DNA from: Candidatus Micrarchaeota archaeon
GTDB lineage: Archaea; Micrarchaeota; Micrarchaeia; Anstonellales; Bilamarchaeaceae
Direction: 5' to 3'
Assembly (NCBI GenBank): GCA_964588555.1
Contig: CAZPPT010000004.1
Span: forward strand, 6,476-70,475
DNA length: 64,000 bases
A program made the translations under genes and the position numbers. The notes under the pieces were generated by a model that made no database searches, was not told the DNA's origin, and worked only from the letters and a program-made list of their open reading frames with translations. Of this stretch, positions 9,619 through 63,990 are shown in pieces; positions within the stretch are counted from its first letter, which is position 1; each line of letters begins with the position of its first letter.

Positions 9619-9864
9619 ATGAACGAAACGCTTGAGATTGGAAGAGTAAGCGCGCGTGGGCAAATCGCAATACCAATCGAAATACGAAAAGAGATGGGGC
9701 TCGATGAAGGTTCAAAGGTTCTTTTCTTTCTTGAGGATGACACACTTCTTATTAAGAAGGTAAGTAGCCAAACATGGGAACAAATCACTGCTCCGCTTAA
9801 GGCTGCAAAAAAGAAAATACGGGAGGGTGAAGTGGATGATTTGGTGCACCGGATGAGAAAATGA
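9619..9864 (+). CDS. vapB: AbrB/SpoVT-family antitoxin (VapB-like)
   Basis: SARGQIAIPIEIRKEMGLDEGSKVLF is a swapped-hairpin AbrB-type motif. The stop overlaps the ATG of the PIN gene (ATGA). Confidence 0.8.
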   Translation: MNETLEIGRVSARGQIAIPIEIRKEMGLDEGSKVLFFLEDDTLLIKKVSSQTWEQITAPLKAAKKKIREGEVDDLVHRMRK

Positions 9865-10286
9865 TGAAAGTTGTATTAGATACCAACGTTCTCGTTGCAG
9901 CGACGTTTTGGAAAGGCGAAGCAGATGACATTATTCAGTTAATTCAAGAAAGGAAGGTACTCGCTTTTTTGTCAAAAGAAATACTTGGTGAGTATCATAA
10001 AGTTATACGGAGCGATGAGATCATTGAAAAAATTGAAGAAAAGCATTTAACTGTAAAATTGACTGCGATCAAGATCGTGCACCTTTTCGAATTCGTTGAG
10101 CCTAAAAGAAAAATTAATTTTATTATCGATGATCCAGACGACAATAAAATAATAGAATGTGCAGTTGAGGCACAGAGCGACTTTATTATTACTTACGATC
10201 GTAGACATCTACTGAAGCATAATAAATTCGAAGAAATAAAGATTATTTCCCCAGCTGAATTTCTAAGAATTTATAGTCAAAGATGA
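9861..10286 (+). CDS. vapC: PIN-domain toxin (VapC-like)
   Basis: VVLDTNVLVAA at the N-terminus, DDNKIIECAVEA and ITYDRRHLL acidic positions typical of PIN. Confidence 0.8.
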   Translation: MMKVVLDTNVLVAATFWKGEADDIIQLIQERKVLAFLSKEILGEYHKVIRSDEIIEKIEEKHLTVKLTAIKIVHLFEFVEPKRKINFIIDDPDDNKIIECAVEAQSDFIITYDRRHLLKHNKFEEIKIISPAEFLRIYSQR

Positions 10287-10296
10287 GGTGTACGTC

Positions 10297-10803
10297 ATGA
10301 ATGAAACAATCCATATTATCCTGACAGGCGGAACAATCGACTCAGTATTTGACCCTGTAAAAGACGGCGTTGTCATCGGGAAGGAGACAGTAGTTGAGGA
10401 TTACCTAAAGAAGCTGCGGCTCCATAACTCCCTTGAAGTGACGCTTGCATTCCTTAAGGATTCGCGCGAGATCCGCCACGCTGACAGGAAAAAGCTTCTT
10501 GAACTCGTCCAAAAATCGCCACACAAAAAGATCCTTATCACGCACGGCACGTACACGATGCCTGACTCTGCCCAGTACCTTAAGGAAAACATTGCAAAAA
10601 CGAGCAAGACAATCGTCTTTACCGGCTCAATGGTCCCCTTAACTGGTTTTCAGTTTTCAGATGCGGCATTTAACTTAGGCTATGCAATCGGACAACTTCA
10701 GTCATTAAAACCAGGTGTGTATGTGTGCATGAACGGCAAGGCATTTGATCCGGATAGGGTGGACAAGAACACGGTCCAGGGGAGATTTGAAGAGATCGGT
10801 TAG
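10297..10803 (+). CDS. asparaginase N-terminal-domain-like protein
   Basis: IILTGGTIDS (the TGGTI threonine motif) and ITHGTYTM. Only ~168 aa, so a single domain. ATG at 10297 follows GAGGTG. Confidence 0.6.
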   Translation: MNETIHIILTGGTIDSVFDPVKDGVVIGKETVVEDYLKKLRLHNSLEVTLAFLKDSREIRHADRKKLLELVQKSPHKKILITHGTYTMPDSAQYLKENIAKTSKTIVFTGSMVPLTGFQFSDAAFNLGYAIGQLQSLKPGVYVCMNGKAFDPDRVDKNTVQGRFEEIG

Positions 10804-10815
10804 GCGGCGCAAAAC

Positions 10816-11607
10816 ATGCTTGAACTTATCCTCCTTAAATTTTTTGTCGCAGTTGGCGCAGTCCTTGGTTTATCCCTTATCTCAGAACGCATGAGCCCCG
10901 CCACAGCAGGATTTTTGGCCGGTCTTCCAACGGGAACTGCAATTTCTCTTTTCTTTTTTGGACTTGAACACGGGACTGATTTTGCAGCACAAAGTGCAGT
11001 GCATAATCTTTCAGGAATGGTTGCGCTACAGGTCTTCATTTTCTTATATTATGTCGTTTCCGTTCGAATTAAAATTACAAATATTTTTACGATCGCACTC
11101 GTTACTATTATTTCAGTTATCGGATACGCGCTTTCTGTCTATGTAATCAACGCCCTCCATCTTGATCTTTTTGGCTCGGTTCTTGCGCTTATTATTTCGA
11201 TTCCGTTTTTTATCTATTTATTCCGACGGATCGAACCCGCCCGCATCAATGGTGCAGTCACGCTTTCATTTCCCGTACTCGGCATTCGGTCGGTCATTGC
11301 CTCATCTATCATTGTCACCGTTATCTCGATTGCCGGCTCAGTTGGTCCGGCATGGGCGGGCCTTTTCTCCGCATTTCCAACAACGTTGTTTCCCCTTATA
11401 CTCATAACACACCTTACCTACGGAATAAAACCAACCCATGCACTTATCAAACGAGTTCCCGAAGGATTAGGTGGGATGCTTATCTATGGGCTAGGCGTTT
11501 TCTTTACGTACCCGTCGCTTGGGATTTACATAGGTACGATTGCCTCATACGCGCTCGTATTTTTTTATGTCCTGTCGTATCGGATGTTTGCGTTTCGTTC
11601 TCGGTAG
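10816..11607 (+). CDS. polytopic membrane protein
   Basis: 263 aa, about 8 hydrophobic segments, no family recognised. Confidence 0.6.
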   Translation: MLELILLKFFVAVGAVLGLSLISERMSPATAGFLAGLPTGTAISLFFFGLEHGTDFAAQSAVHNLSGMVALQVFIFLYYVVSVRIKITNIFTIALVTIISVIGYALSVYVINALHLDLFGSVLALIISIPFFIYLFRRIEPARINGAVTLSFPVLGIRSVIASSIIVTVISIAGSVGPAWAGLFSAFPTTLFPLILITHLTYGIKPTHALIKRVPEGLGGMLIYGLGVFFTYPSLGIYIGTIASYALVFFYVLSYRMFAFRSR

Positions 11608-14349: not shown

Positions 14350-14377
14350 AAAAAAGCGCCTCCGCCGGGAATGTCAG

Positions 14378-14475
14378 TTTCGCCCTTGCGCTTTTAGGAA
14401 AAGCGCCCAAAACTGGGATTTCAAGGGCGAGCCCCAAAAACAAATTTGACCTGTGCAAATCCTTTTGGTTTTGGG
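14378..14475 (-). repeat. conserved intron module, copy 1 (tRNA-Asp T-loop intron)
   Basis: Plus strand reads tttcgccc ... gggcgagccccaaaaac-loop-ggttttggg. See the finding on the shared module. Confidence 0.6.
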
Positions 14476-14554
14476 ATAATGCGTAGACCTTTGCCATTTG
14501 GTTTTCTAATTCAAAGGGCTTCGCCTTCGAACCCGGGTCGCGAGAGCTCCGTTA

Positions 14555-14631
14555 TTTCGCCCTTTTTAACGCTTCTATATTTCTTGCGTCAAAAAGGTCG
14601 AGCCCCAAAACATGGAAAACCAGTTTTTGGG
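14555..14631 (-). repeat. conserved intron module, copy 2 (tRNA-Asp anticodon intron)
   Basis: Plus strand reads tttcgccc ... ggtcgagccccaaaac-atggaaaacca-gtttttggg. Confidence 0.55.
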
Positions 14632-14749
14632 CTGCCTTTTTTCTAAAAAGGCAGAATGACAGTCTCGTATGCTAACCAATGTGCATTAATCTAAGTAGGA
14701 TTAATACTACACTACAGAGGCTAAAGAGATATATCATGTGTAAAAGAGT

Positions 14750-16068: not shown

Positions 16069-16836
16069 ATGGTCACGACAGAAGAATTCCGCTCCCAGTT
16101 TGCTAAAGGGGTCAAGCAGCAGTGGGTAATTAGTGAGAATATAAAAAACATCAAAACCCGTATCGCAGTCTGGAGCGCGAAAGGCGGAGTGGGAAAAACG
16201 ACATTTGCAGTTAATCTTGCATATGCACTAGCAGAAAAAACAAACACAGGTCTACTTGATGCAGATATTGATTGTCCCAATGTATTTGCTGCCCTTAACA
16301 TCACTGAGCGCCATATTGCAAGCGGAGGTAAAATTCTTCCAGTCAGAAGGGGAAACCTTGAACTGGTGAGTATGGGCGGCATCACTTCGGATACCATCTT
16401 GTGGCGCGGCCCGCTTGTTTCACAAGCGCTTTCCCAATTTCTATCAGGGGTTGCATGGAATGTAGAAACGCTTGTTGTTGACCTTTCACCGGGTTCAAGC
16501 GACGTACCCATCACTATTACAGAACTTCTCAAGCCAACTGGTTTTATCATCATTACAACAAGCGACGAAATGGCGCTTTTGGATGCGCGTAAAAGTATCC
16601 AGTTCGCAAAGAAACTCCGCTTTCCCATTATCGGCATTGTTGAGAACATGTCGGGGGATGTTTTTGGAAGCGGTGGCGGGGAACAATTGGCAGAAGAATT
16701 CAATATCCCGTTTTTAGGATCGTTACCGCTTGATAAGAAAATACGGGAGCATATGCAAAATAATGTGCCACTGCACAAGACGGAGTTTAAGGAGGTGTTT
16801 GAAAAAACGGTGGAAAGAATTAGGGTAGAAAAATAA
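16069..16836 (+). CDS. Mrp/ApbC/NBP35-family Fe-S cluster carrier ATPase
   Basis: Deviant Walker A WSAKGGVGKTT, DADIDCPN and DLSPGSSD motifs, 255 aa. Confidence 0.85.
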   Translation: MVTTEEFRSQFAKGVKQQWVISENIKNIKTRIAVWSAKGGVGKTTFAVNLAYALAEKTNTGLLDADIDCPNVFAALNITERHIASGGKILPVRRGNLELVSMGGITSDTILWRGPLVSQALSQFLSGVAWNVETLVVDLSPGSSDVPITITELLKPTGFIIITTSDEMALLDARKSIQFAKKLRFPIIGIVENMSGDVFGSGGGEQLAEEFNIPFLGSLPLDKKIREHMQNNVPLHKTEFKEVFEKTVERIRVEK

Positions 16837-17191
16837 CTCCTTCTATATTTTCAAATTGTGGATCTCCTGTAAGAAATGGTACGCGTAATGCACGTGCGGT
16901 TACATACCCCATACAATCGGCATATGAAAGTTTTTTGCTTTTATGTTGTAATCGAAACTCAGCTGCTTCTATGAGAAGGTTATTATTAACCGATATTTCA
17001 AATTCTTCAAATGTTTTGTACTGCTTTTGTGCTTCCTCTTTTCTAATTCCTATTCTTCGTAGATTATAGTAGAGTTCGATAAGATTAAACTGGGTAGTCA
17101 AGTATCTAAATCCTCTTTTGTACTGTTCATATGCAGTATTTCCATTTATAATTTGGAAAATAGCGTATGTATCTAAAAAAATTGCACTCAT
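16820..17191 (-). CDS. vapC: PIN-domain toxin (VapC-like)
   Basis: MSAIFLDTYAI..., SYADCMGYVTA and FLTGDPQF. The start overlaps the antitoxin stop (TGATG). Paralog of 29030..29407. Confidence 0.8.
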   Translation of the reverse strand: MSAIFLDTYAIFQIINGNTAYEQYKRGFRYLTTQFNLIELYYNLRRIGIRKEEAQKQYKTFEEFEISVNNNLLIEAAEFRLQHKSKKLSYADCMGYVTARALRVPFLTGDPQFENIEGVIFLP

Positions 17192-17403
17192 CAATCCCAG
17201 CTCTCCCTGCACATTTCCTTAAACTTGCGTGCTGAAACGCCCGTTTTAAGAGAGCCAAATATATGGCCTAGGTCAGCATGTTTTTCAACTGAAATATGTA
17301 TTTTGTCCCCTTCCTTTATGCCTTCTTTTTCTGCAATTTCCTTAGGTATTATCACTGCCAGGGAAGAACCCCATTTTTTTGTTATACTTTCAATCTCATG
17401 CAT
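17191..17403 (-). CDS. vapB: AbrB/MazE-type antitoxin (VapB-like)
   Basis: KKWGSSLAVIIPKEIAEKEGIKEGDKIHI. Paralog of 28821..29030. Confidence 0.8.
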   Translation of the reverse strand: MHEIESITKKWGSSLAVIIPKEIAEKEGIKEGDKIHISVEKHADLGHIFGSLKTGVSARKFKEMCRESWD

Positions 17404-26258: not shown

Positions 26259-27080
26259 TTATTTCCCATACCGTCTTTTTCGCTGCGAATAATCCTTAAG
26301 CGCGTCCTCAAAGTCCTCCTTTGAAAAATCCGGCCACAGTTTTTTTGAGAAGTATAATTCGCTATAACATGACTGCCAGGGAAATAAGCCGCTTAAGCGC
26401 TGTTCCCCCGAAGTCCGGATAATGAGGTCCGGGTCTGGCATATCCTTTGTATAGAGGGACTCGCTCAACTTTCCCTCATCAATTTCCTTAACCCCGCTTC
26501 TTAGTAATCTGTTTACTGCATCGACAATCTCTTCCCGGCCCCCATATCCGAGCAAGAGGTTTAGCTGGTATTTCCTTTTTGCGCTGTTTGTTAATTCCTC
26601 AACTTTTCTTATCATTTCCTGTATCTCTTTTGGAAATATGTCAAAACGGCCAAGAAATCGCACTCGCAAGTTATTCTTATTGCTGTCGTCACTGTTTATC
26701 ACGTCCTGGAGGTTCTTTTTGAATAGTTCAAAAAGCCCGCCAACCTCCGCCTTATCGCGTTTGATATTGTCGGTACTGAATCCCCACATGGAGAGCATGG
26801 AAATATTGTATTCCTTGCACCACTTAAGCACATCGCCAATGTGCCTGATGCCTGTTGCATACCCTTCCGTTTTGTCAACGCCCCTTTGTTCTGCCCATCG
26901 CCGGTTTACAGTGTCCTGTTTTCAGTCAGTTACGAAACTGGAACAAGCTTGTCGCTTTGCGACAAGATGCCCATTGTCCGATCATTCGGACAATTGGGAC
27001 TCGAGACTGGAAACTGACTTTCCGTCCGGGATGATGGCAATGTGCGTTGGCAATTTCTCAACCTTTTCGATTTCAACCAC
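26259..27080 (-). CDS. uppS: cis-prenyltransferase (UPP/dolichyl-type diphosphate synthase), interrupted by a 114-nt insert; coding = 27021..27080 + 26259..26906
   Basis: Exon 1 is (GTG)VEIEKVEKLPTHIAIIPDG. Exon 2 is NRRWAEQRGVDKTEGYATGIRHIGDVLKWCKEYNISMLSMWGFSTDN...IIRTSGEQRLSGLFPWQSCYSELYF. Joining them restores DGNRRW. The track lists only 26259..26831. Confidence 0.75.
26907..27020 (-). other. candidate BHB-type intron inside uppS
   Basis: 114 nt with an in-frame TGA. AAA bulges flank an ACGG/CTGT helix, next to an exon-exon helix CATCCCGG/CCGG(C)GATG. Two perfect internal hairpins. Confidence 0.55.
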
Positions 27081-27102
27081 CAAAACTACTTATAAAAGGA
27101 GC

Positions 27103-28820: not shown

Positions 28821-29030
28821 ATGGAAGTACGTACACGCGTTAGGCGATGGGGTAATTCATTTGGAGTTACTATCCCAAAAGATGTAGCAGAAGGCATGCA
28901 TATTCATGAGGATGAAGAGGTAATCATAGAAGTTAAGAAAACATTCTCAATCAAGGATGCATTCGGTTCCCTTAAGCCAAAACGGTCAGTTGAAGAGATA
29001 ATGAAAGAAGTAGATAAAGGGTGGGACTGA
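28821..29030 (+). CDS. vapB: AbrB/MazE-type antitoxin (VapB-like)
   Basis: RRWGNSFGVTIPKDVAEGMHIHEDEEVIIEV. GGTGAT RBS. Confidence 0.8.
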   Translation: MEVRTRVRRWGNSFGVTIPKDVAEGMHIHEDEEVIIEVKKTFSIKDAFGSLKPKRSVEEIMKEVDKGWD

Positions 29031-29407
29031 TGTATTACCTAGACACCTATGCGATTTTAGAGTATATATTTGGAAATCAAAAGTTTAAACAGTATGTAGA
29101 CGATGCGAATTTTTGTCTCAGCAGATTTAATCTAATGGAGATGTACTATGCGCTTCTTAGAGATTTTAATGAGGAAACTGCTGAAAAGTACTTTGAATCT
29201 TTTGCAATTGCAGAGGTCGAAATCTCTGAAAGAACGCTAAAAAACGCAATGAAAAGGCGATTGGAACTGCATGGAAAAAAATTGGATATTTCGTATGTTG
29301 ACGCAATCGGTTATCAATATGCTTTAGATAATAAATTAAAATTTGTGACTGGTGATAGAGAATTCAAGAATCTTGATTCTGAAAATATAATTTATTTGGG
29401 AAAATAG
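29030..29407 (+). CDS. vapC: PIN-domain toxin (VapC-like)
   Basis: MYYLDTYAILEY..., SYVDAIGYQYA and FVTGDREF. Shares the TGATG junction with its antitoxin. Confidence 0.8.
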   Translation: MYYLDTYAILEYIFGNQKFKQYVDDANFCLSRFNLMEMYYALLRDFNEETAEKYFESFAIAEVEISERTLKNAMKRRLELHGKKLDISYVDAIGYQYALDNKLKFVTGDREFKNLDSENIIYLGK

Positions 29408-34041: not shown

Positions 34042-34284
34042 ATGAGTTATACTACAATTCAAATCACTTCCGAAACTAAACATAAGCTTGCACAATTAAA
34101 AAGTGACGGGCGGGAGACATACGATGAACTTATAAACGCGCTTATTGAACTTATTCCTTCAAAAGATGATGAAGGCACGTATACAAACGAATTTAGGGCC
34201 TCTCTTTTAAGAGGTCTTTTGGACATTCGCCGGGGTCGTACCTATTCCGACGAAGAAGTACGAAAAAAATTGGGGATCGAGTGA
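34042..34284 (+). CDS. antitoxin (RelB/ParD-like partner of RelE)
   Basis: 80 aa, overlaps the downstream RelE-type gene by 4 nt. Confidence 0.65.
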   Translation: MSYTTIQITSETKHKLAQLKSDGRETYDELINALIELIPSKDDEGTYTNEFRASLLRGLLDIRRGRTYSDEEVRKKLGIE

Positions 34285-34532
34285 CCTTTGCGATTACTTA
34301 TTCTGAAGAAGCATTATATCAGCTTAAGAAGTTAGATAATCAAACTGCCAAGCGTATTCTTGACAAGGTAAAGGAGGCGGCAACAAAACCTCGTCATTTT
34401 TTTGAACGTCTCAGGGGAAGGGAGGCGTATAAGCTTCGGGTTGGTGATTATCGACTAATTGCATTTCTGTTTTTTACCGAAGAACGAATTTTTGTTTCAT
34501 CCATTGGGCACCGTAAAATTTATGAAAAATGA
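34281..34532 (+). CDS. relE: RelE/ParE-family toxin
   Basis: YKLRVGDYRLIAFLFFTEERIFVSSIGHRKIY matches the RelE/StbE core pattern. Confidence 0.8.
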   Translation: MTFAITYSEEALYQLKKLDNQTAKRILDKVKEAATKPRHFFERLRGREAYKLRVGDYRLIAFLFFTEERIFVSSIGHRKIYEK

Positions 34533-37429: not shown

Positions 37430-37549
37430 AGAAAACTATCGCTCGCATTGTTTTAAAATGTGATGAATCTTCTGCCACACAACGGGTAAATAGAGTGGGA
37501 CATACATTTATTTAAAAATACTGTGGGATATGTATATATTGGTGGGATC

Positions 37550-37780
37550 ATGTATCATATTAGCTTAGATAAAAAAGGACGTATCGTTATTCCATCTGCA
37601 ATTAGGGAAAAATACGGGCTTGAAGAAGTAGAACTACGCGAGGAAAACGGAAAGATTGTACTCGAACCTATACAGCATATTGATGACCCTATCGCGTATC
37701 TTGCTTCATTTTCAATTAAAACAAAAAAATCACCAAAGGAGCTTAAAAAAGAAGCACAAGAATTAATGGGGCGCATGTAA
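37550..37780 (+). CDS. vapB: AbrB/SpoVT-type antitoxin (VapB-like)
   Basis: ATG after GGTGGG. LDKKGRIVIPSAIREKYGL. Confidence 0.75.
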   Translation: MYHISLDKKGRIVIPSAIREKYGLEEVELREENGKIVLEPIQHIDDPIAYLASFSIKTKKSPKELKKEAQELMGRM

Positions 37781-38172
37781 TGTATTATGTTGATACTGAT
37801 TTTTTCCTTGCCCTTGTGAAGGAAACTGATTGGATGAAGGAGAAAGCAATTAATTTTTCCAGAACTAATTCTCTCTTTAAAGAGAAACAGGTTGTAACAT
37901 CTTCCTTTGCCCTACTGGAAACATGGTTTATCCTTGAAAGAAACAAGGCATTTAAGCGCGAAGTTTTTCATGCTATTCGTCAAATTGTCTCTGGCATCTA
38001 TGAATTAAGTACTGACCATCTTGAATATGCGGCATATCTAAAAGAGGCGCATAATTTGAATATTGGAGATGCGATTCATGCATCATTTGCTCTGCAAGAA
38101 GATGGAATAATTAGCAGTGATGATTCATTTGATTATGTTGCTGGATTAAAGCGTATAGATTTTCTCAAATAA
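37780..38172 (+). CDS. vapC: PIN-domain toxin (VapC-like)
   Basis: MYYVDTDFFLAL, GDAIHASFA and ISSDDSFD acidic positions. Overlaps the antitoxin stop. Confidence 0.75.
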   Translation: MYYVDTDFFLALVKETDWMKEKAINFSRTNSLFKEKQVVTSSFALLETWFILERNKAFKREVFHAIRQIVSGIYELSTDHLEYAAYLKEAHNLNIGDAIHASFALQEDGIISSDDSFDYVAGLKRIDFLK

Positions 38173-41802: not shown

Positions 41803-41926
41803 AGCCCCCGGAGGGAATATCAGTTTCCTGTTTCCGGTCTTTAGTTTGACTGCTAGAAACAAGACACGTTTGAACCCCCGGCCTATCGCTTACGAAGCGA
41901 TCGCTCTACCGCTGAGCTACAGAGGC
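41803..41926 (-). tRNA. tRNA-Thr (CGU) with 52-nt T-loop intron
   Basis: GCCTCTG TA GCTC AGCGGTA GAGC G ATCGC TTCGTAA GCGAT AGGCC GGGGG TTCAAA|[52 nt, 41817..41868]|T CCCTC CGGGGGC T. The intron folds as GTGTCTTGTTTCT/GGAAACAGGAAAC. Confidence 0.8.
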
Positions 41927-43218: not shown

Positions 43219-43594
43219 CGCTGAGGACAGGATCTGTTCCTTTCGCCCTTTTTAGATTCATACGCCCTTCCTGTGTAAAAAAGGGCGAGCCCCAAAAACA
43301 GAAGAATCTGTTATTGGTGATCTAAACGGACGAAGTTCAACCGAAAATCTACGGTACACCACCGCAGGGTTTTTGGGATGAAGCGTAGACCTTTTGCCAT
43401 AAGAATGGCACAAGTCAAAAGGGCTCCGCATTGAACCTGTAATCCACGAGGGATCGGTTTACTCGTAACCTGGTTCGAGATTCGCCCCTTGGCCTAACCC
43501 TTCTAAGGGGGTGAGGCCTTAGGGGGCTCCAAGAGACACCTAAGTGCCCCCTAGGCTTCAAGACCGACGCACTACCAGGTTATGCGACCTCAGC
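43219..43594 (-). tRNA. tRNA-Ser (UGA) with two large introns
   Basis: GCTGAGG TC GCAT AACCTGGTA GTGC G TCGGT CTTGAA|[97 nt, 43460..43556]|A ACCGA TCCCTCGTGGATT ACAGG TTCAA(T)|[~197 nt, ~43233..43430]|(A)T CCTGT CCTCAGC G. All four stems are perfect or have one G-U. Long variable arm, G73, oligo-T after. Confidence 0.8.
43241..43377 (-). repeat. conserved intron module, copy 3 (tRNA-Ser T-loop intron)
   Basis: Plus strand reads tttcgccc ... gggcgagccccaaaaac-(69 nt)-gtttttggg. Confidence 0.6.
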
Positions 43595-43619
43595 ATCAAA
43601 CTTTTAGGAAAAGTTTGAT
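43595..43619. repeat. perfect 11-bp inverted repeat abutting the tRNA-Ser 5' end
   Basis: atcaaactttt-agg-aaaagtttgat. It begins at the nucleotide next to tRNA position 1. Confidence 0.6.
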
Positions 43620-55373: not shown

Positions 55374-58300
55374 TTAAACAGAAGAGGCATGAGTCGTTTC
55401 CGCCGGTTTCTCCCCATTCTCCTTATGCACAACAGCAAAGCTCGCAACCTTTTCCTGTTCGTTCAATTTGATGACCCGAACTCCTTGCGTGTTTCTGCCT
55501 ATTACTGAAATGTCGCTTACCGGCATCCGTATTGCCTGGCCCCCGGTAGTCATGAGGATAACCTCATCATCGTCGCTTACGCACCGTGTTGCGACAATGG
55601 CGCCATTTCTCCCTTCGGTTTTCATGTTGATGATGCCGCTTCCGCCCCGGCCTTGGATCCGGTATTCATCAATATGGGTTCGTTTCCCATACCCGTTTTC
55701 AGTGATCGTAAGCACGGTCTGCTTGTTGCAGATTGCAAGGCTCACCACATAATCAGTAGGGTCCATCCGTATCCCAATCACCCCTTGCCCAGTCCTGCCT
55801 ATTTCACGCGCATCCTCTTCGTGGAATCGGATCGATTGCCCGTTTCTGGTTGCAATGAGGATCGTCTCCTTGCCGTTTGTCTTGCGGACATCGACAAGTC
55901 CGTCCCCTTCCTTAAGCGTAATTGCAATGATGCCTGTCTTTCGGGGGTTATTGAAGTTTGCAAGGCTGGTCCGCTTGATGGTGCCGTTCTTGGTCATCAT
56001 GACAAGGTACTCGTCCTCGTTGAATGCCGCCACGCTGACCCATGAGCTGATTTTTTCATCCTTTAGCTCAAGAAGGTTTACGATTGTCTTGCCCGTCGCA
56101 TACCTGCCTGCTTCTGGCACGCGGTATGCCTTAAGCCAGAACGCGCGCCCCTTGTCGGTGAAAAAGAGGATGTAATTGTGGTTTTTGGTAACAATAAGGT
56201 CATTTACCACGTCTTCCTCCTTTGTCTCAGTGCCGATCACGCCCTTGCCGCCCCGGCGTTGCGAGCGGTATTCGTCGGTCCTGATCCGCTTGATATAACC
56301 GCGTTGCGTAATGACCACCACCACCTCGTCGTTTGGTATCAGTTCCTCAATGGTGATGTCTTCGCCACCTTCTGAAATGGCAGTTCGCCTGCCGTCCCCG
56401 TACCGCGCCTTAATTTCAGTAAGTTCTTCCTTTATGATCGCAAGTATCTTCAGTACGTCTGAAAGCACGTCCTTAAGCCAGGTAATCTGCTTTTGGAGTT
56501 CGCCGTGCTCGTCCTGGATCTTCTTTTGTTCAAGTGATATAAGCCGCTGGAGCTTCATGTCAAGGATTGCCTGCGCCTGTTTTTCACTAAGGGAGTACGA
56601 ATTCATGAGCCCTCCCTTGGCCTCTTCAACGTCCTTGCTTGCCTTAAGGAATGCAATAATCGGTTCTATCTGTTCAAGTGCCTTAAGGAGCCCCTCGAGT
56701 ATGTGCGCACGCTCCTCTGCGATACGAAGCTCGTATGTACAGCGCCTCTGCACAATCTCCTTTCTAAAATCTATGAACTGGCTTATGAGCTGGTGGAGCC
56801 CAAGTATTTTGGGTTCATTATTTACAAGTACGAGGTTGATAATCCCAAACGTGCTTTCAAGCGGCGTATGCGCATACATCTGGTTGAGCACTACCGCGGG
56901 CGTCGCGTCCCGTGAGAGGTCGATTACGACGTTGATCCCTTCGCGGTCGCTTCGGTCATGTACGCCCTTTATGCCGACAATTCGCTTGTCGCGTGCCGCA
57001 TTTGCGATCGCCTCGATGATGGAAGTTTTTGTTACCTGGTAGGGTATTTCACGGATTACAATTACGTGTTTTGTTTCGTCAATTTCGCATCTGCCCCGCA
57101 TCTTAATAATGCCCCGTCCCGTCTTGTATGCTGAGTAAATCCCTGCCTTTCCGACTATTTCGCCGCCGGTCGGGAAGTCCGGGCCAGTGACGATTTGAAG
57201 GAGCTGTTCTTCGTTTGCGCCGTCGATCACTGCGATTGCGCCGTCCACTATCTCAGTGAGATTATGGGGCGGGATATTTGTTGCCATGCCGACCGCTATG
57301 CCTGCGCTTCCGTTGATAAGCAGGTTTGGGACCTTGCTTGGGAGCACGGTCGGTTCCTTGAGCGTGCCGTCAAAGTTCGGGACAAAGTCAACGGTTTCCT
57401 TGTCAAGGTCATTAAGCATCTCTTCTGTGAGGTGTGCCATCCTCACTTCCGTATACCTCATTGCTGCCGGGCTATCTCCGTCTATCGAACCAAAATTTCC
57501 TTGACCATCTACAAGCATATAACGTAATGAAAACGATTGTGCCATTCTCGCAAGAGAGTCATACACAGCCTGATCGCCGTGTGGGTGGAACTTACCAAGG
57601 CAATTATGCGAAATCATCCCGTTAGCGATAAATTCGTGTGATTCTTCAACTTGTATGTCATATGTTTTTTCTGCTGGTCTGTTCTCTATTTTTTCAACTC
57701 TTAAGAAGTAAATTTCATTTTTAATGACCTGATTAACAAATGGTGCAAAAGCCGATTCTATTCTATTTAGTTTTTCTTGTATCCCCCACTCAACGAGCTG
57801 TGTTCTGCCAAGGTATTTTTCTTTTAAATCCTTAGCGTATCTAATTTTCGTCCCGTTTGAGTACTTTATCCCCATCCTGAATTTTTGGCCTGCCTTGTCG
57901 CTGTACCAGCCTGCTCCCACATGGTTCTTACTTAATTCCTCAAACAGTATGTTCCCGGCGTGCGGGATTTCATCAAACAAAGACGTTTTAATGATGTGGT
58001 TTGTAAAGTCACTTCGGCTATTTTTTCTTTCATCTGACAGCAATAGTTGTTGCAGCAATACCTGAGCAAATCTTCCTCCAATTTCCAAGCTATGGAACGG
58101 ATAATTGCCTTTAACAAGTTGCCCATTGACAGAACTCTTTTTTTCACTGTAATCAGTATACTTTTTACCAAAAATACCTAAATGTTGTAGTACTATTTGG
58201 AGTTGATCGATAAGTTTTTCTGATACGCTCCCATAATGGATGACATTCCTTTCCTTATGTATGCTGCCATCGCCATCGATAAGCCCGCTTATAAAAGAAA

Positions 58301-59207
58301 AGATAACTGATTTTGGCGATCTGAATATCTGCGGAGGTATTATTTTTGTAAACGCAACGGCATTTTGAAGGCTAAAAGCAGAAACTAAAAAATCATTTAT
58401 CTCGACCCTATTTACTCGTACTGTAAACATTCTATTAATAAGAATTTGACCCGATGCAGTCTCTATTTCATATTCTCTCTCTTCTATTGTCGGTTCGTAT
58501 TGAAATTCATTTTGCAATATCGCTGCAAGTCTTTGTGCCACTTCATACGAGTTGGTACTTACTGCACACCTAAACCCCTTTCCATGGTTATATCCTTTTT
58601 CTATCCAGCCGTCCGAAAGTAATTGGCCTAATAAGTAACCAATGTTCTGATTTAGGTGAATTTTCCTCCCGTATAATTCTCCCATGTACACTTCTTTTTC
58701 AATAACTGGATAAATTGCCCGGCTTACAATATAGTCCCCAACCGTGATATCTTTTGCCTCTTTCCATTCAAATTCAAGGTTTTTGTTTAGTATTTTCAAT
58801 TTCTGCGATTGCGTCACTGTATTCGACGTCCCATTTTTAAGTGTTATTTTAAGAAGTTCCCGCTCCGGCATTTCATATAACTCAGTAACCTTATTTTCCC
58901 CATTTTTAGTAAAAACGACATCACCACATTCTATTTCTTGTATTGGGATGAGCCCGCGTTTTGTTGCCACGAGCGTGTCTTTTACAAAGCATTCACCGAC
59001 GATACGGGCACTCTTTTTATACGCCTTATTATAATGGTTGCCGAGTTCCTTCATTGAGTATAAAATCCGTCGATGTACCGGCTTTAATCCGTCCCGAAGG
59101 TCTGGTATTGCGCGGCCCACAATGACGCTCATTGCATAATCCAAGTAGCTTTCCTTAAGGTCCTTTTCAATGGGCTGCTCAATAATCGTCTCAGTCATAA
59201 ACGCCAC
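55374..59207 (-). CDS. gyrA: DNA gyrase subunit A containing an intein
   Basis: Extein blocks [31 protein letters not shown] and C-terminal beta-pinwheel repeats. 1277 aa in total, about 814 aa without the intein. Confidence 0.9.
57603..58991 (-). mobile_element. GyrA intein (463 aa) with LAGLIDADG homing-endonuclease domain
   Basis: Inserted in ARIVGE|CFVKDTLV...[10 protein letters not shown]|[19 protein letters not shown] motifs [10 protein letters not shown] and [10 protein letters not shown]. Terminal HN with a +1 Cys. Confidence 0.85.
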
Positions 59208-60792: not shown

Positions 60793-63700
60793 ATGGCTGA
60801 CCAGAGTAGTGAATATACTGCAAAAGACATCCAGGTTCTTGAAGGATTGGAAGGCGTGCGTAAACGCCCGGCAATGTATATCGGTGACATCGGCAAAAGA
60901 GGGCTTCATCATTTAGTGTATGAAATTTCTGACAATTCGGTGGACGAGGCACTCGCCGGACACTGCAAGAATATCGAGATTACGCTTCATGCCGACGGCT
61001 CTGTTTTGGTAAAGGATGATGGGCGCGGGATCCCAATAGACATCCACCCTAAAACCGGCAAGAGCGCGCTTGAGGTTGTAAGCGGAAGCCTACACGCCGG
61101 CGGCAAGTTTGAAAAGAAGGCGTACAAGGTAAGCGGCGGTTTGCACGGCGTCGGTATGAGCGTGGTGAACGCATTAAGCCACTGGATGCACATTGAGGTG
61201 CACCGCGACGGCAAGATCCACACGCTTCACTACGACCATGGAAAAACACAGGAAGGCGTACGCGTTACCGGGGAGACTGCGTACCGCGGGACGATTGTCC
61301 GCTTTAAGCCCGACGCAACCATTTTCCAGACTGTCGAGTTTGATTTTGAGTACCTGAAAGAACGGTTTATGGAGCTTGCGTTCCTTAACAAGGGGCTGCG
61401 TATCACGTTGTCTGACGAGCGTACGCAAAAAAGCGAGGAATTTTACTATGAGGGTGGCATTGTCCAGTTTGTCGAATACCTCAACAAGGCACGGCCCCGT
61501 CTTCACCCGCCATTTTATATAAACAAGTCAATCGACTCACTTGAGATCGAATTTGCGCTCCAGTATACGGAAAGTTTCAACGACATGCTGTATTCATTTG
61601 TAAATGACATTAAGACCGTTGAGGGCGGCACCCACGTTATTGGGTTTAAGACCGCGCTTACGCGTGCAGTAAATGAGTATGCAAAGGGAAACAAGCTCGT
61701 AAAGGACGACCATAAGATTGTTGGTGATGATGCCCTCGAAGGCATAACTGCAGTCATCAGCATCAAGATCCCCGAGCCCCAGTTTGAGGGGCAGACCAAG
61801 ACAAAGCTTGGAAACAACGAGGTTAAGGGGGTTGTCGACAGCATCGTCTATGAGGCGCTTCAAACGTACCTTGAGGAAAACCCCGATTCTGCAAAGAAGA
61901 TCGCAGCAAAAATAGTCCAGAGTATGGAGGCACGCGAGGCTGCACAAAAGGCGCGCGACCTGATCAGGCGAAAGAACGTCTTTGAGTCAAGCATCCTGCC
62001 CGGAAAACTTGCTGACTGTGAGGAGGAAGACCCGACAAAGGCGGAGTTGTTTTTGGTGGAAGGGGACAGCGCCGGTGGATGTTTTTCGGGCGACACAAAA
62101 GTAGCGCTTGCTGACGGAAGAAATGTAACTTTTAAAGACCTCATAGAAGAAGATGCAATGGGAAAACGCAATTTTTGCTATACTATTAAGAAAGACGGAT
62201 CAATCGGTATAGAAGAAATCAAGCATCCTCGCATTACTAAAAGAAATGTTGAAGTTATTACAGTTATTTTGGATACTGGTGAAAAAATAGAATGCACTCC
62301 GGATCATTTGTTTATGCTTCGTGACGGCACCTATCGTAAGGCGCGAGATTTAAAACCATCGGATTCACTTATGCCATTGCAACGAAAGCTTTCTGAATTA
62401 GGCAATTCAATAACTATTGAAGGTTATGAAATGGTATACGATCATAAATCTCTTCGCTGGATTTTTACCCATCTTTTAGCAGATAACTGGAATATGGAAA
62501 ACGCAGTATATCCTGCATTGCCAAATGCACATCGTCATCACATCGACTTTAACAAGTTGAATAATAACCCAACGAACATAAGGCGATTAAGTCCCGAAGA
62601 ACATTTAGCATATCATCGCGGACTTCTTGAGAAAACACTTCACACTCCTGAAATTAAAGAAAAATGCAGGAAACTAAAACAGACAAAAGAATTTAGGGAA
62701 ATGATGAGTAAGAGAATGAAAGAGCCTTCAACAAGAAATATTCTTAGTAAAAATGCAAGGAAGCAGTGGGAAGATCAAGCATATAAGGAATACATGATAA
62801 AGAAATTCATTGATTTTTACTATGGCAATAAAGAATACCGTGAAAAATCTCTAAAAATTCTTGCTGAAAGTCAACGTACTTATTGGTCAAGCGAAGAAAA
62901 TGTTAAAAAACAATCTGAACGGATACAAAAATTCTTTAGCGAACACCCTGAGAGAAAACAAGTTTTATCAGTTGCCGCAAAAGAACAATGGCAGAACGAA
63001 CAGCTACTTCTTTGGAGAAGTGAAAGAACTAAAGAACAGTGGACCCCTGAATTTAGAAAAAAGCGAATGAAAGCTTACAATAAGGCGTACTATGACGCAA
63101 CAATACGAGCTTTACGAGACATCTACGATAAAACAAATATGATAGATATTGATGAATATAATCAGTTAAGGAAAAAAACTAAGAACAAAAATTTACTCCT
63201 TTTCGAGACATTTGCCAAACGATTTTTTGACAACGATACTGATAGTGCTAAACAGGCAGTTATGAATTATAATCACAAGGTCTTTGCTGTTATTAATTTA
63301 CATAAACAAATGGACGTATACGATATCGAAGTGCCTAATACACATAATTTTGCGCTTGCGAATGGCGTTTTTGTCCACAATAGTTCGAAGATGGCACGCG
63401 ACCGCCGATTCCAGGCAATACTCCCCCTCCGCGGCAAGATCCTCAATGTCGAAAAGGCCCCCATACACAAGACCCTCGCAAGCGAGGGCATAAAGAACGT
63501 CGTGCTTGCGATCGGTGCCGGATTCAAAGATGAATTTGACTTAAACAAGACGCGCTACCATAAAATTATCATCACGTGCGATGCTGATGTTGACGGTGCG
63601 CACATTAGGACTCTTTTACTTACGCTTTTTTACCGTTACTTCAAGCCCGTTGTCGAAAAGGGTTATATTTATGTTGCACAGCCCCCGCTGTATCGGGTCA

Positions 63701-63990
63701 AGAAAGGAAAGAACGAGCGCTACGTCTATAACGAAACTGAACTTGATGCAGCACTCAAAGAATTTGGCGAGGGGTGTGAAATCCAACGCTACAAGGGTTT
63801 GGGTGAAATGAACCCTGACCAATTGTGGCATACTACGATGGATCCCGCAACTCGTACGCTTAAGAAAGTGACTATCGAGGATGCGATGAAGGCTGATGAG
63901 CTGTTTAGCATTTTGATGGGCGAAGAAGTCGAGCCACGGCGTGAATTTATCGAAAGCTATGCAAAGGAAGTAAAGAATCTGGATATCTGA
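60793..63990 (+). CDS. gyrB: DNA gyrase subunit B containing an intein
   Basis: GHKL ATPase blocks VYEISDNSVDEA, DDGRGIP, GGLHGVG. Toprim LVEGDSAGG|...|S..RDRRFQAILPLRGKILNVEKA and CDADVDGAHI. About 631 aa without the intein. Confidence 0.9.
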   Translation: MADQSSEYTAKDIQVLEGLEGVRKRPAMYIGDIGKRGLHHLVYEISDNSVDEALAGHCKNIEITLHADGSVLVKDDGRGIPIDIHPKTGKSALEVVSGSLHAGGKFEKKAYKVSGGLHGVGMSVVNALSHWMHIEVHRDGKIHTLHYDHGKTQEGVRVTGETAYRGTIVRFKPDATIFQTVEFDFEYLKERFMELAFLNKGLRITLSDERTQKSEEFYYEGGIVQFVEYLNKARPRLHPPFYINKSIDSLEIEFALQYTESFNDMLYSFVNDIKTVEGGTHVIGFKTALTRAVNEYAKGNKLVKDDHKIVGDDALEGITAVISIKIPEPQFEGQTKTKLGNNEVKGVVDSIVYEALQTYLEENPDSAKKIAAKIVQSMEAREAAQKARDLIRRKNVFESSILPGKLADCEEEDPTKAELFLVEGDSAGGCFSGDTKVALADGRNVTFKDLIEEDAMGKRNFCYTIKKDGSIGIEEIKHPRITKRNVEVITVILDTGEKIECTPDHLFMLRDGTYRKARDLKPSDSLMPLQRKLSELGNSITIEGYEMVYDHKSLRWIFTHLLADNWNMENAVYPALPNAHRHHIDFNKLNNNPTNIRRLSPEEHLAYHRGLLEKTLHTPEIKEKCRKLKQTKEFREMMSKRMKEPSTRNILSKNARKQWEDQAYKEYMIKKFIDFYYGNKEYREKSLKILAESQRTYWSSEENVKKQSERIQKFFSEHPERKQVLSVAAKEQWQNEQLLLWRSERTKEQWTPEFRKKRMKAYNKAYYDATIRALRDIYDKTNMIDIDEYNQLRKKTKNKNLLLFETFAKRFFDNDTDSAKQAVMNYNHKVFAVINLHKQMDVYDIEVPNTHNFALANGVFVHNSSKMARDRRFQAILPLRGKILNVEKAPIHKTLASEGIKNVVLAIGAGFKDEFDLNKTRYHKIIITCDADVDGAHIRTLLLTLFYRYFKPVVEKGYIYVAQPPLYRVKKGKNERYVYNETELDAALKEFGEGCEIQRYKGLGEMNPDQLWHTTMDPATRTLKKVTIEDAMKADELFSILMGEEVEPRREFIESYAKEVKNLDI
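62080..63381 (+). mobile_element. GyrB intein (434 aa) with HNH-type endonuclease region
   Basis: GDSAGG|CFSGDTKVALADG...TPDH (block B)...HRHHIDFNKLNNNPTNIRRLSPEEHLAYH (HNH)...repeated KEQW-type helices...LANGVFVHN|S. Confidence 0.85.

Follow-up and report, generated by a model that had tools for sequence, protein, structure and literature searches.

Two genes of a Micrarchaeota (DPANN) host, a tRNA-Thr(CGT) gene and uppS, which encodes a PF01255 cis-prenyl diphosphate synthase (cis-prenyltransferase), are each interrupted by an insert, and the question raised by this locus is whether the two inserts are introns of a single lineage occupying both a tRNA and an mRNA. A preliminary description of the window (the whole 64-kb stretch of DNA that was analysed) had proposed as much from end motifs common to both inserts, and all of the strings that it quoted are present on the minus strand where it placed them. 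Named homologues of UppS and of the deoxyhypusine synthase (DHS) belong to Micrarchaeota or Bilamarchaeum. We consider it probable that this host carries many endonuclease-spliced bulge-helix-bulge (BHB) introns, that the Thr and uppS inserts are two of these, and that they share a family of heptamer arms or a mobile hairpin module. The features concerned are collected in Table 1.

Table 1. Positions of the interrupted genes, introns and repeat arms in the window (^ marks a splice or insertion point, here and in the text)
Feature	Position	Strand	Basis
tRNA-Thr(CGT) gene, T-loop interrupted	41803..41926	-	Rfam tRNA match spans 41873-41926 only
tRNA-Thr BHB intron, 52 nt, T-loop position 59/60	41817..41868	-	sequence, RNAfold, spliced product a valid tRNA
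Thr intron heptamer-repeat 3' arm ACCGGAAACAGGAAACTG, reads CCGGAAA CAGGAAA CTGATAT	41821..41838	-	motif matches, alignment A2
uppS exon 1, MPTHIAIIPDG and first base of Asn codon	27020..27053	-	translation; relatives' starts
uppS BHB intron in coding sequence, 114 nt	26906..27019	-	sequence, RNAfold, translation
uppS exon 2, NRRWAEQRG...RRYGK, stop	26259..26905	-	translation, homologues
uppS BHB 5' half: outer strand CCGG 27029-27026, central ACGG 27025-27022, bulge AA^A 27021-27019	27019..27029	-	RNAfold, pair counts on six orthologous introns
uppS BHB 3' half: central CUGU 26911-26908, bulge AA^A 26907-26905, outer CCGG 26904-26901	26901..26911	-	RNAfold, pair counts
uppS intron heptamer-repeat 5' arm CAGTTTC CAGTCTC GAGTCCC	26996..27016	-	L094, L003 comparisons
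uppS intron heptamer-repeat 3' arm ACTGAAAACAGGACACTG	26909..26926	-	15/18 identical to Thr 3' arm; exact consensus match; alignment A2
tRNA-Asp(GTC) T-loop 59/60 intron, 155 nt; other family than Thr/uppS	14371..14525	-	z matrix, ARAGORN

BHB structure of the tRNA-Thr and uppS inserts

The tRNA-Thr gene as it stands is not called by ARAGORN, and removal in silico of minus-strand positions 41868..41817 (CGTGTCTTGTTTCTAG...GGAAACAGGAAACTGATAT) yields a valid tRNA-Thr(cgt) of 74 nt. In the RNAfold structure the T stem serves as the outer helix (GGGGG 41879-41875 with CCCTC 41815-41811), the central helix consists of one U.U and three base pairs (UUCA 41874-41871 with UGAU 41822-41819), the bulges read AA^C and AU^U, and the inner helix is formed by GU/AC followed by a 10-bp stem (UCUUGUUUCU/GGAAACAGGA), bearing out the earlier claim that the two ends of this insert pair with each other. 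The insert is a standard T-loop BHB intron at position 59/60, a documented intron site in Micrarchaeota tRNAs (PMC3239211). Synteny led to no orthologous tRNA-Thr locus; homologues are lacking for the 396-aa GGDEF-like protein next to the gene, and the tRNA cluster is not syntenic in relatives chosen by their deoxyhypusine synthase, from which the loci L094 and L095 discussed below came. Searching metagenomes for T-loop introns with the ending GAAACTGAYAT^TCC gave 11 matches, all apparently due to chance, and the matches L084 and L090, when examined, were not tRNAs.

In uppS, the probable start codon is the TTG at 27053-27051 (in-frame alternatives are TTG 27083 and GTG 27080), with an equivalent start codon in the relatives L098 (MPSHIAIIPDG) and L003 (VPSHIAIIPDG). 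The insert contains in-frame stop codons, the first being a TGA 12 codons in, and gene callers give only a C-terminal UppS fragment of 179-190 aa. Removal of the insert at the predicted junction (GGACGGAA^ACCGG) joins GAC GGA A^AC CGG to read ...IIPDGNRRWAEQRG..., restores the catalytic motif IIPDG^NRRWA in frame, and produces a full-length ORF of 225-236 aa with 73% identity to intact homologues. The insert had previously been delimited as 27020..26907 and is delimited as 27019..26906 by the BHB cleavage rule, the two being equivalent because of an A run.

The CCGG/CCGG outer helix agrees with the earlier statement that the uppS insert lies between two strands of a host helix, and the fold is again that of a BHB intron. 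Between its inner and central helices an unpaired A (26912) faces the 5' bulge, giving a 3x1 internal loop, and the tip of the intron, beyond the heptamer arms, bears three extra hairpins. In uppS, in Thr and in the tRNA-Trp gene of L094 alike, the exon-intron borders fall in a pair of 3-nt bulges that lie on opposite strands with a 4-bp helix between them; the BHBs are slightly relaxed because of the unpaired A in uppS, an A.G in the central helix of L098 and the U.U in Thr.

From this structure we infer a splicing route for the uppS pre-mRNA in which the end of exon 1 (CCGG ACGG AA) would find its pairing partners in the intron's 3' end (CUGU AA) together with the start of exon 2 (A CCGG), folding into a helix, a 3-nt bulge, a 4-bp helix, a 3-nt bulge and a helix. 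An archaeal splicing endonuclease, expected in this phylum to be of the broad-specificity epsilon2 type, would cleave both bulges, an RtcB-type ligase would then join the exons in frame, and an unspliced message would yield a peptide of only about 23 residues. A Pfam scan of all ORFs found no gene for a splicing endonuclease or ligase within the 64-kb window. Sequencing coverage of uppS comes from the DNA run only, the three small metatranscriptomes of the same study having zero coverage there. Scanning all ORFs of the window for truncated Pfam domains revealed no second split protein gene, and a de novo BHB scan combined with an ORF-joining test returned about 1800 candidates with no discrimination. 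The most promising of these, 10794-10919, would as an intron connect an asparaginase-like ORF with the one that follows; it was discarded, since the latter encodes an independent membrane protein.

The uppS intron across Micrarchaeota lineages

An intron at the identical, codon-exact uppS site is present in eight Micrarchaeota lineages that are scattered over the UppS tree and retain intact exons throughout, compared with at least ten lineages without it. Its length ranges from 17 to 114 nt (114 nt in the window, at least 49 in L002, 70 in L003, 42 in L006, 27 in L010, 35 in L012, 17 in L013 and 33 in L098). Minimum free energy folds give the same BHB frame in all six complete intron-bearing uppS genes analysed, and the 12 boundary pairs of alignment A1 are 100% paired across these six sequences (72 cells), whereas sliding the 3' partners leaves 25-41% paired. 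Compensatory double changes are seen at two pairs, one of them exon-exon: C-G is replaced by U-A in the central helix of L006, and G-C by U-A in the exon-exon helix of L010, where Pro CCG to CCT occurs together with Arg CGG to AGG. Furthermore, all 4 bp of the exon-exon helix are present in 6/6 intron-bearing uppS genes, as against 1/10 orthologues that have no intron.

These observations bear on whether uppS might instead be a pseudogene with a decaying insertion, or a gene that copes with its insert at the protein level, through ribosomal hopping or with the insert acting as an intein. Such readings would account for the in-frame stops and for the truncated protein of the gene callers; nevertheless we regard them as highly improbable, as the preservation in eight lineages of intact exons, an exact insertion point and a BHB with compensatory changes effectively refutes a pseudogene, an intein is excluded because stops occur in all read-through frames and the insert measures only 17-114 nt, and a ribosomal hop is opposed by the lack of a matched take-off/landing codon pair and of a stop directly after the take-off codon. 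The decaying insertion that the preliminary description had named as part of the contrary outcome is not seen in the relatives, and, judged from sequence, the uppS insert is a genuine BHB intron.

Most lineages that share the uppS intron position carry unrelated intron sequence. In the closest relative, L002 (82% UppS identity), the uppS intron is without heptamer arms, implying that the family signature is not simply inherited along with the uppS intron. The L002 intron hairpin also seems to resemble the Asp anticodon intron and a hairpin 5' of tRNA-Ser, but this was set aside as A/T-rich low complexity, coding DNA giving equally good matches. A LAGLIDADG ORF in L098, considered as lying inside the uppS intron, is located upstream and reads through exon 1 in another frame. 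We also rejected a C/D box sRNA of the tRNA-Trp type, as CUGA occurs with no box C partner in either the Thr or the uppS intron, and there were no Rfam matches.

Heptamer arms in tRNA and mRNA introns

Compared directly, the Thr and uppS introns are modestly alike and, as the alignment against shuffled sequence proposed earlier now indicates, above chance (p about 0.001-0.006 over shuffles and real windows). Their same-sense local alignment scores 23, against 13.8 +/- 2.3 in 2000 dinucleotide shuffles (p=0.0065), and a long-gap score gives p=0.0055 in the same sense and p=0.0005 antisense; of 9806 real 52-nt windows taken from the 64-kb window, scores this high were reached by 0.17% (local) and 0.12% (long-gap). 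An nhmmer search of the entire window with the Thr intron places its two best non-self matches within the uppS intron. By itself this pairwise similarity appears modest, at p about 0.002, and since both elements are hairpins their two ends, or arms, are not independent evidence. In an all-against-all matrix of 12 introns, in which unrelated pairs almost all have z<2.5 and rarely reach about 3.9, the Thr intron has z 4.3-4.9 to the window uppS intron and z 4.4 to that of L003, which was obtained independently. A 10-mer common to the uppS intron and positions 7055-7064 (AATTGTCCGA) was dismissed as chance, the latter being a coding region.

One explanation of this likeness, which we consider unlikely, is chance or convergence between two BHB introns: A-rich self-complementary hairpins whose last bases must pair with the exon, and in which, within this lineage, slippage-prone 7-nt repeats arose independently. 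It would fit the individual BLAST and nhmmer E-values of the Thr/uppS comparison against the whole window, none of which is significant, and the structural registers of the shared ends. The original alignment of ACTGATAT with ACTG-TAA brings together structurally different positions, as UGAU of Thr is a central-helix strand pairing with the T-loop and CUGU of uppS pairs with ACGG, so that the shared CUG stands in different registers. The arms, however, tell against convergence. Both introns have arms of tandem heptamers with the 3' arm ACNGNNAACNGNANACTG, and the 7-nt units, UUUCCWG in the 5' arm and CWGGAAA in the 3' arm, recur in the Thr intron, in the uppS introns of the window and of L003, and in the tRNA-Trp intron of L094. 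The Thr 3' arm matches GRAACWGGRAACWG with zero mismatches and the family consensus ACNGNNAACNGNANACTG exactly; the uppS 5' arm is identical at 18/19 positions to the L094 5' arm and at 19/23 to the reverse complement of the L003 3' arm. Gap-free alignment of the 3' arms (A2) contains 14 invariant columns in the whole and 12 invariant positions over its last 19 columns.

What is shared is therefore an 18-nt consensus, beyond a mere common period: it occurs in four BHB introns of three genomes, with five exact matches across 282 kb from Micrarchaeota, whereas 1.04 Mb of control DNA has none (10 matches versus 1 for the double heptamer), and identities of 15-18 out of 18-19 reach past the structurally forced bases. 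Family members always lie in host-sense orientation, and control introns of the same genome have z of about 0. Convergence retains some room in that the motif is absent from the uppS introns of L002, L006, L010, L012, L013 and L098, that L003 also contains an unrelated tandem heptamer (CGCATCC GGCATCC), a sign that 7-nt duplication is a general process, and that a heptamer array occupies an intergenic spacer of L006 (6905-6950), making the motif not exclusive to introns.

The fourth member interrupts a tRNA-Trp gene in L094, where an 83-nt BHB intron lies at position 30/31 (UGGC/GCCA, bulges UG^A and AA^G, inner helix AAC/GUU). It has z 7.1 to the window uppS intron (18/19 nt), 5.4 to Thr (16/18) and 6.4 to L003, with controls at z of about 0, although this match back to the window introns is partly circular because L094 was found with the motif derived from them. 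Orthologous tRNA-Trp genes of L095 and L096 are exactly without the 30/31 intron (GGCTG^GCTCC uninterrupted). An initial reading of L094 as a tRNA-Phe-like gene was abandoned; brute-force ARAGORN failed on it, and comparison with L095, whose own tRNA-Trp spliced in silico is a valid tRNA (ARAGORN), identified a tRNA-Trp with an extra 30/31 intron. Thus four similar introns (z 4.3-7.1, in the arms only and not over the whole intron) occupy non-orthologous sites, and presence/absence differences at orthologous sites occur in both tRNA-Trp and uppS. The proposal that the Thr and uppS introns have more in common than chance allows is upheld, and with the L003 uppS and L094 Trp introns they form one recognisable family; the sequence evidence supports a single intron family spanning tRNA and mRNA.

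The tRNA-Asp T-loop intron, which had been assigned to the same family on account of its ending, does possess that ending (GCGAAACTGACAT at 14383..14371), but its membership fails, with z of about 0-2 to Thr and uppS. The shared ending CUGAYAU^U is largely due to T-loop pairing, and the T-loop intron of L095 tRNA-Trp ends GCUGACUU^U. The Asp T-loop, Ser T-loop and Asp anticodon introns constitute a second, much clearer family (z 10-16; Asp T-loop versus Ser T-loop z 10-12), and the Asp and Ser genes spliced in silico are recognised by ARAGORN.

A rather doubtful alternative is that the heptamer hairpin is a small MITE-like DNA mobile or satellite element that lands anywhere but survives only where it can be spliced, and that has secondarily entered an older uppS intron without having founded it. 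The uppS position is indeed old and usually occupied by short unrelated sequence (17-42 nt), the two heptamer versions being the longest (70 and 114 nt), and both the intergenic array of L006 and the clean tRNA-Trp presence/absence difference would be expected of such an element. However, the L094 and uppS junctions show neither a target-site duplication nor, apart from the hairpin itself, terminal inverted repeats. The uppS, Thr and L094 elements are not flanked by direct repeats, and their ends complement the exon instead of duplicating it. In uppS and Thr a central-helix strand is supplied by the element's own end, and the orientation with respect to the host transcript is uniform, a constraint that a DNA transposon is under no need to obey.

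On the favoured reading, one lineage-specific intron family or mobile hairpin module would have established itself at separate BHB-competent positions, in tRNA genes as well as in uppS. How and in which direction it spread we can only infer, and the direction proposed in the preliminary description, from tRNA T-loops to an mRNA, is not sustained, given that the uppS position is common to eight divergent lineages with mostly unrelated sequence and that another member lies in an anticodon stem. Nor is a T-arm-like nature of the uppS site supported: any spliced hBHBh' site, the anticodon loop at 37/38 among them, takes the form of a 7-nt loop closed by a helix, the intron following the sixth loop position, and the uppS central helix ACGG is unlike the T-loop UUCA. 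It is possible, and we suggest it tentatively, that BHB introns are still mobile in this Micrarchaeota clade, the moving unit being a 7-nt-repeat hairpin able to enter any site that offers a 4-nt complement and a closing helix, the targets being the T-loops and anticodon stems of tRNAs as well as one essential mRNA or more. The period of 7 equals one BHB half-site (four helix nucleotides and a 3-nt bulge), and the unit CNGGAAA resembles the uppS 5' splice motif ACGGAAA. Because orientation is always host-sense, reverse splicing might drive the spread. Mobile hairpins of this kind, if real, would represent a natural case of coding genes invaded by protein-spliced introns.

Comparison with known splicing systems

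In eukaryotes, the HAC1/XBP1 mRNA intron lies between paired stem-loops, is cut by a protein endonuclease and is sealed by a tRNA ligase (RtcB in metazoa). As proposed here for uppS, production of the full protein depends on splicing; the endonuclease, IRE1, and the recognition motif differ from those of uppS. The eukaryotic system is regulated by stress. Archaeal rRNA and tRNA BHB introns with LAGLIDADG homing endonucleases have a demonstrated route of mobility, and they are BHB-bounded like the introns described here, which are without any ORF.

Ca. Micrarchaeum (ARMAN-2), of the same phylum as the window, has been shown to possess introns at position 59/60 and tRNAs with more than one intron (PMC3239211; PMC3488258; PMC12397907), and its epsilon2 endonuclease cuts both strict and relaxed BHBs in vitro (PMC3239211). 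These papers concern tRNA substrates only (PMC3239211 does not use the term mRNA, and in PMC12397907 mRNA introns appear in the reference list only), and the introns described here, unlike theirs, reach about 200 nt. Transposed tRNA introns of the Thermoproteales type, from a 2010 study as summarised in PMC4090602, are taken as gains by transposition to BHB-competent sites. As far as that summary goes, the same pattern is seen here in Thr 59/60, in Trp 30/31 and separately in the Asp and Ser introns. Unlike the Thermoproteales type as summarised, the present family includes an mRNA intron, its likeness resides in repeat-built arms and not in the whole intron, and it belongs to another lineage.

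[quoted passage not shown] This intron lies in a protein-coding ORF, is removed by the tRNA splicing endonuclease, and has a patchy distribution attributed to ancestral gain and lineage-specific losses (PMC2738675, Yokobori 2009). The uppS intron is similarly a patchily distributed BHB intron within an ORF that gene callers mis-predict; it is not the cbf5 intron of Desulfurococcales/Sulfolobales, although it belongs to the same mechanism class. It differs in the gene, in residing in DPANN/Micrarchaeota, where an epsilon2 endonuclease is expected versus alpha2beta2 in Crenarchaeota, and in its approximately 7-fold length range at one site. As gene callers truncate such genes and tRNA finders miss multi-intron tRNAs, systematic errors are to be expected in DPANN annotations and in metabolic inferences (e.g. 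'uppS missing'). No other protein-coding BHB intron is reported in the literature searched, and uppS would thus represent a second, well-supported case, in another gene and another archaeal superphylum, in which the interruption falls within the catalytic motif of a lipid-carrier synthase that is essential, and in which exon-exon covariation is seen. As far as we could find, the cbf5 intron has not been reported to be akin in sequence to any tRNA intron, and in uppS an mRNA intron is linked by sequence to tRNA introns, with gain/loss polymorphism documented for a member of the family, such that the spread of protein-spliced introns, and their possible colonisation of mRNAs, becomes a directly testable question.

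An intervening sequence in uppS

The reading frame of uppS, the gene for cis-prenyl diphosphate synthase, runs to ...HIAIIPDG, is interrupted upstream of the C-terminal ORF by 114 nt containing in-frame stops, and resumes at NRRWAEQRG.... RNAfold pairs CCGG of exon 1 with CCGG of exon 2, and ACGG of exon 1 with CUGU at the intron end, leaving an AAA bulge on each strand, the bulge-helix-bulge (BHB) arrangement cut by the archaeal splicing endonuclease. Placing the splice points by rule, after the second bulge base on both strands, rejoins the exons as GAC GGA A|AC CGG, the conserved catalytic motif DGNRRWA, and the spliced protein can be aligned along its entire length (100%) with uninterrupted UppS proteins of Micrarchaeota, with identities reaching 73%. 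The interval 26907..27020 in the preliminary description is equivalent to ours because of an A run. Immediately behind the purP stop, and ~40 nt before the probable uppS start (TTG 27053), is a TATA-like TTTATAA (27092-27098), which may serve uppS as a promoter of its own, with a very short leader.

Homologues assign the window to Candidatus Micrarchaeota. In most relatives uppS is uninterrupted, the contiguous DGNRRW being missing in only 4 of the 120 best protein clusters. We found an insert at exactly the same codon junction in eight lineages, the window and seven loci from other genomes, and analyzed the structures of six complete introns; the intron of L098, found later and not one of these six, was read by eye. 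All six form the same BHB frame in their minimum free energy folds, and in the boundary alignment all 12 pairs form in every sequence (72/72 cells), compared with 25-41% when partners are slid. Two boundary pairs show compensatory double changes: ACGG/CUGU becomes AUGG/CCAU in L006, while in L010 CCGG/CCGG becomes CCUG/CAGG through a synonymous Pro codon change in exon 1 and an accompanying change of the Arg codon in exon 2. Furthermore, 6/6 intron-bearing genes can form every pair of the 4-bp exon-exon helix, compared with only 1/10 intron-less orthologues (Fisher exact p ~0.001). The alternative of an unrelated, decaying insertion is argued against by the shared site, the complete pairing and the two compensatory changes, and the uppS insert is very probably a BHB intron that functions within an mRNA. 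In a neighbor-joining tree of UppS the intron-bearing lineages are scattered, as expected either if the intron is old and was lost several times or if this one site gained an intron more than once. Full-text literature searches on BHB introns in protein-coding genes, Micrarchaeota and DPANN returned cbf5 work only, with no report of a uppS BHB intron.

Several observations concern neighboring sequence in relatives. The Logan contig of L002, the window's closest relative, starts within a hairpin of its uppS intron (1-49), pointing to a repeated or palindromic element at which the assembly broke. In L098 (JAZDPO010000001, 2000-2930) a free-standing LAGLIDADG_3 ORF lies between purP and the intron-bearing uppS, and as called extends across uppS exon 1 in a different frame. 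At the equivalent place the P0001 contig has a 362-aa ORF lacking a Pfam match, and the window and L003 have none.

Introns and related features in the window and in comparison loci
Feature	Position	Strand	Length	Detail
cis-prenyltransferase C-terminal ORF	26259..26831	minus		PF01255 match
uppS intron, window	27019..26906	minus	114 nt	BHB cutting rule; 18-nt 3' arm ACTGAAAACAGGACACTG
uppS intron, L002			at least 49 nt	contig begins inside intron
uppS intron, L003			70 nt	18-nt 3' arm ACTGGGAACTGGAAACTG
uppS intron, L006			42 nt	
uppS intron, L010			27 nt	
uppS intron, L012			35 nt	
uppS intron, L013			17 nt	
uppS intron, L098			33 nt	
tRNA-Thr(CGT) gene	41926..41803	minus		T-loop interrupted after TTCAAA
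tRNA-Thr T-loop intron	41868..41817	minus	52 nt	sequence, RNAfold BHB and spliced tRNA; 18-nt 3' arm ACCGGAAACAGGAAACTG
tRNA-Asp(GTC) gene	14357-14721	minus		three introns; D-loop ~27 nt
tRNA-Asp anticodon intron (37/38)	14547-14656	minus	~110 nt	second family
tRNA-Asp T-loop intron (59/60)	14525..14371	minus	155 nt	second family
tRNA-Ser(TGA) gene	43219-43594	minus		two introns; anticodon ~97 nt
tRNA-Ser T-loop intron	43233-43430	minus	~198 nt	second family
tRNA-Trp(CCA) intron (30/31)	L094 118-200		83 nt	comparison with L095 and L096

A hairpin shared by tRNA and uppS introns

The unspliced tRNA-Thr gene is not called by ARAGORN and its Rfam match covers the 5' two thirds only; in-silico removal of the intron yields a normal 74-nt tRNA-Thr that ARAGORN recognizes. 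RNAfold gives an outer helix formed by the T stem (GGGGG/CCCUC), a central helix UUCA/UGAU of one U.U and three pairs, bulges AA|C and AU|U, and an inner helix GU/AC followed by a 10-bp stem. The borders thus obey the archaeal BHB rule, and the intron position is therefore 59/60. Introns at this position are documented in Ca. Micrarchaeum tRNAs, whose epsilon2 endonuclease cuts BHBs of the strict as well as the relaxed type in vitro (PMC3239211).

The resemblance between the ends of the Thr and uppS introns noted in the preliminary description was confirmed. Its two ends constitute one piece of evidence, because both introns are hairpins. Against dinucleotide shuffles the likeness is modest but above chance in sense (p = 0.0065 local, 0.0055 long-gap) and antisense (p = 0.0005, long-gap); 0.12-0.17% of real 52-nt stretches of the window score as high or higher, and with the Thr intron as nhmmer query the uppS intron is the best non-self match in the window. 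In a 12-intron matrix, unrelated pairs almost all lie below z 2.5, rarely reaching ~3.9, and Thr scores z 4.4 with the uppS intron of L003, which was obtained purely by gene orthology. Immediately before their 3' splice sites the three introns have an 18-nt 3' arm in common, in which Thr matches each uppS intron (15/18) as closely as the uppS introns match one another (14/18). This arm consists of tandem CWGGAAA heptamers and the 5' arm of their complements (CAGTTTC CAGTCTC GAGTCCC). The heptamer arms are absent from the uppS intron of L002.

The double heptamer has 10 matches in 275 kb of Micrarchaeota DNA versus 1 in 972 kb of other loci, and the 12-position consensus ACNGNNAACNGNANACTG has 5 in 282 kb versus 0 in 1.04 Mb. 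Among the matches beyond the first three introns are one in a tRNA intron of L013 and a hairpin in L094, which agrees with the 5' arm of the window's uppS intron at 18/19 positions and with the Thr 3' arm at 16/18. Its z values are 7.1 (window uppS), 5.4 (Thr) and 6.4 (L003), with controls near 0; since L094 was found with a window-derived motif, its match back to the window introns is partly circular. The hairpin belongs to a tRNA-Trp(CCA) intron with its own BHB (UGGC/GCCA, bulges UG|A and AA|G, inner helix AAC/GUU), and comparison with L095 and L096 reveals an orthologous gene that reads GGCTG|GCTCC at 30/31 and is a valid tRNA-Trp once two other introns are removed. The genes of L094 and L095 (3829-3990), which differ by this 83-nt intron, have in addition one intron each at 37/38 and in the T-loop. 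At its 3' end the L094 contig departs from the T stem and acceptor that would be expected, perhaps an artefact of the contig end. The sole family-motif match outside introns, at L006 6905-6950 in the spacer that follows the end of an SRP54-like gene, comprises ~8 tandem heptamers (GAAACTG GAAATTG TACACCG GCAACTG AACACTG ...), lacking a complementary arm and an obvious BHB.

Every family member lies in the sense orientation of its host transcript, and these sequence similarities point to a probable common family, or a common mobile hairpin module, of introns in tRNAs and an mRNA, with reservations owing to the partial circularity of the L094 match, the missing arms in L002 and the L006 spacer array. 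The proposal of a single family across tRNA and mRNA is thus strengthened by the added members and by gain/loss polymorphism. Its suggested direction, from tRNA T-loops to an mRNA, is not upheld: the uppS position is old and mostly occupied by short sequences that are unrelated, and one further member is located in an anticodon stem. Similarly, the 'T-arm-like' character of the uppS site is generic, since in any spliced BHB with flanking helices (hBHBh') a helix closes a loop of 7 nt and the intron follows the sixth loop position, the anticodon loop being an example, and the uppS central helix bears no resemblance to a T-loop.

A second intron family and other intervening sequences

The tRNA-Asp T-loop intron, previously grouped with Thr and uppS, belongs instead to a second, far clearer family with the Asp anticodon and Ser T-loop introns (z 6-16). 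Pairing with the T-loop largely dictates its ending, CUGACAU|U; the tRNA-Trp T-loop intron of L095 ends GCUGACUU|U. Members share the module TTTTGGGGCTCGNCCTT...AAGGGCGAAA (z 10-16) and long common blocks, GCCCTTTTGA..ATGGCAAAGGTCTACGC..ATCCCAAAA..TTTTGGGGCTCGCCCTT..AAGGGCGAAA, and thus represent one intron sequence at different positions and in different tRNAs of one genome. The tRNA-Asp gene was missed by ARAGORN and Rfam and becomes a normal tRNA-Asp after in-silico splicing; tRNA-Ser, in a 569-nt 'intergenic' gap, was likewise missed by both and recognized after splicing. A perfect hairpin (ATCAAACTTTT CCT AAAAGTTTGAT, tRNA strand) at 43598-43616 abuts the tRNA-Ser 5' end, raising the question of a role in leader processing or as a promoter element, and similar palindromes (TTTTTAGGAAAAA) recur at 14392, 14636, 3790 and 51281.

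Intervening sequences of various kinds are unusually abundant in this genome. gyrA and gyrB (55374-59207 and 60793-63990) each contain an intein (Intein_splicing), gyrA also with LAGLIDADG_3. The 64 kb also hold many small toxin-antitoxin-like pairs (9861-10286, 16820-17212, 28821-29407, 34042-34532 and 37523-38172), combining PIN domains with MazE-like partners and a ParE-like protein with DUF7557. A 171-aa ORF at 10288-10803 matches the N-terminal asparaginase domain only (profile positions 2-163 of 193); a split gene was rejected here, as an unrelated membrane-protein ORF begins 12 nt on.

Proposed splicing and possible routes to new sites

Our analyses document the structures, covariation and in-frame restoration of uppS, and by analogy with established archaeal tRNA and cbf5 splicing we infer the splicing event and its enzymes. 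The gene would be transcribed with its intron, the ends of both exons would form the BHB with the 3' end of the intron, the splicing endonuclease would cleave both bulges, and an RtcB-type ligase would join the exons, setting free a probably circular intron. Only the spliced mRNA would encode the enzyme, because the unspliced mRNA terminates 12 codons into the intron. No splicing endonuclease or ligase gene occurs among the genes of the 64-kb window. Introns may have reached new sites by DNA-level transposition, as proposed for Thermoproteales (PMC4090602), by reverse splicing followed by reverse transcription, or by insertion of a hairpin module into older introns.

These findings bear on archaeal RNA biology and on the annotation of DPANN genomes. 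The scatter of the uppS intron matches the distribution reported for the crenarchaeal cbf5 intron (PMC2738675), and the Thermoproteales 'intron transposition' cases likewise involve the same intron sequence at different sites, as in the window's second family.
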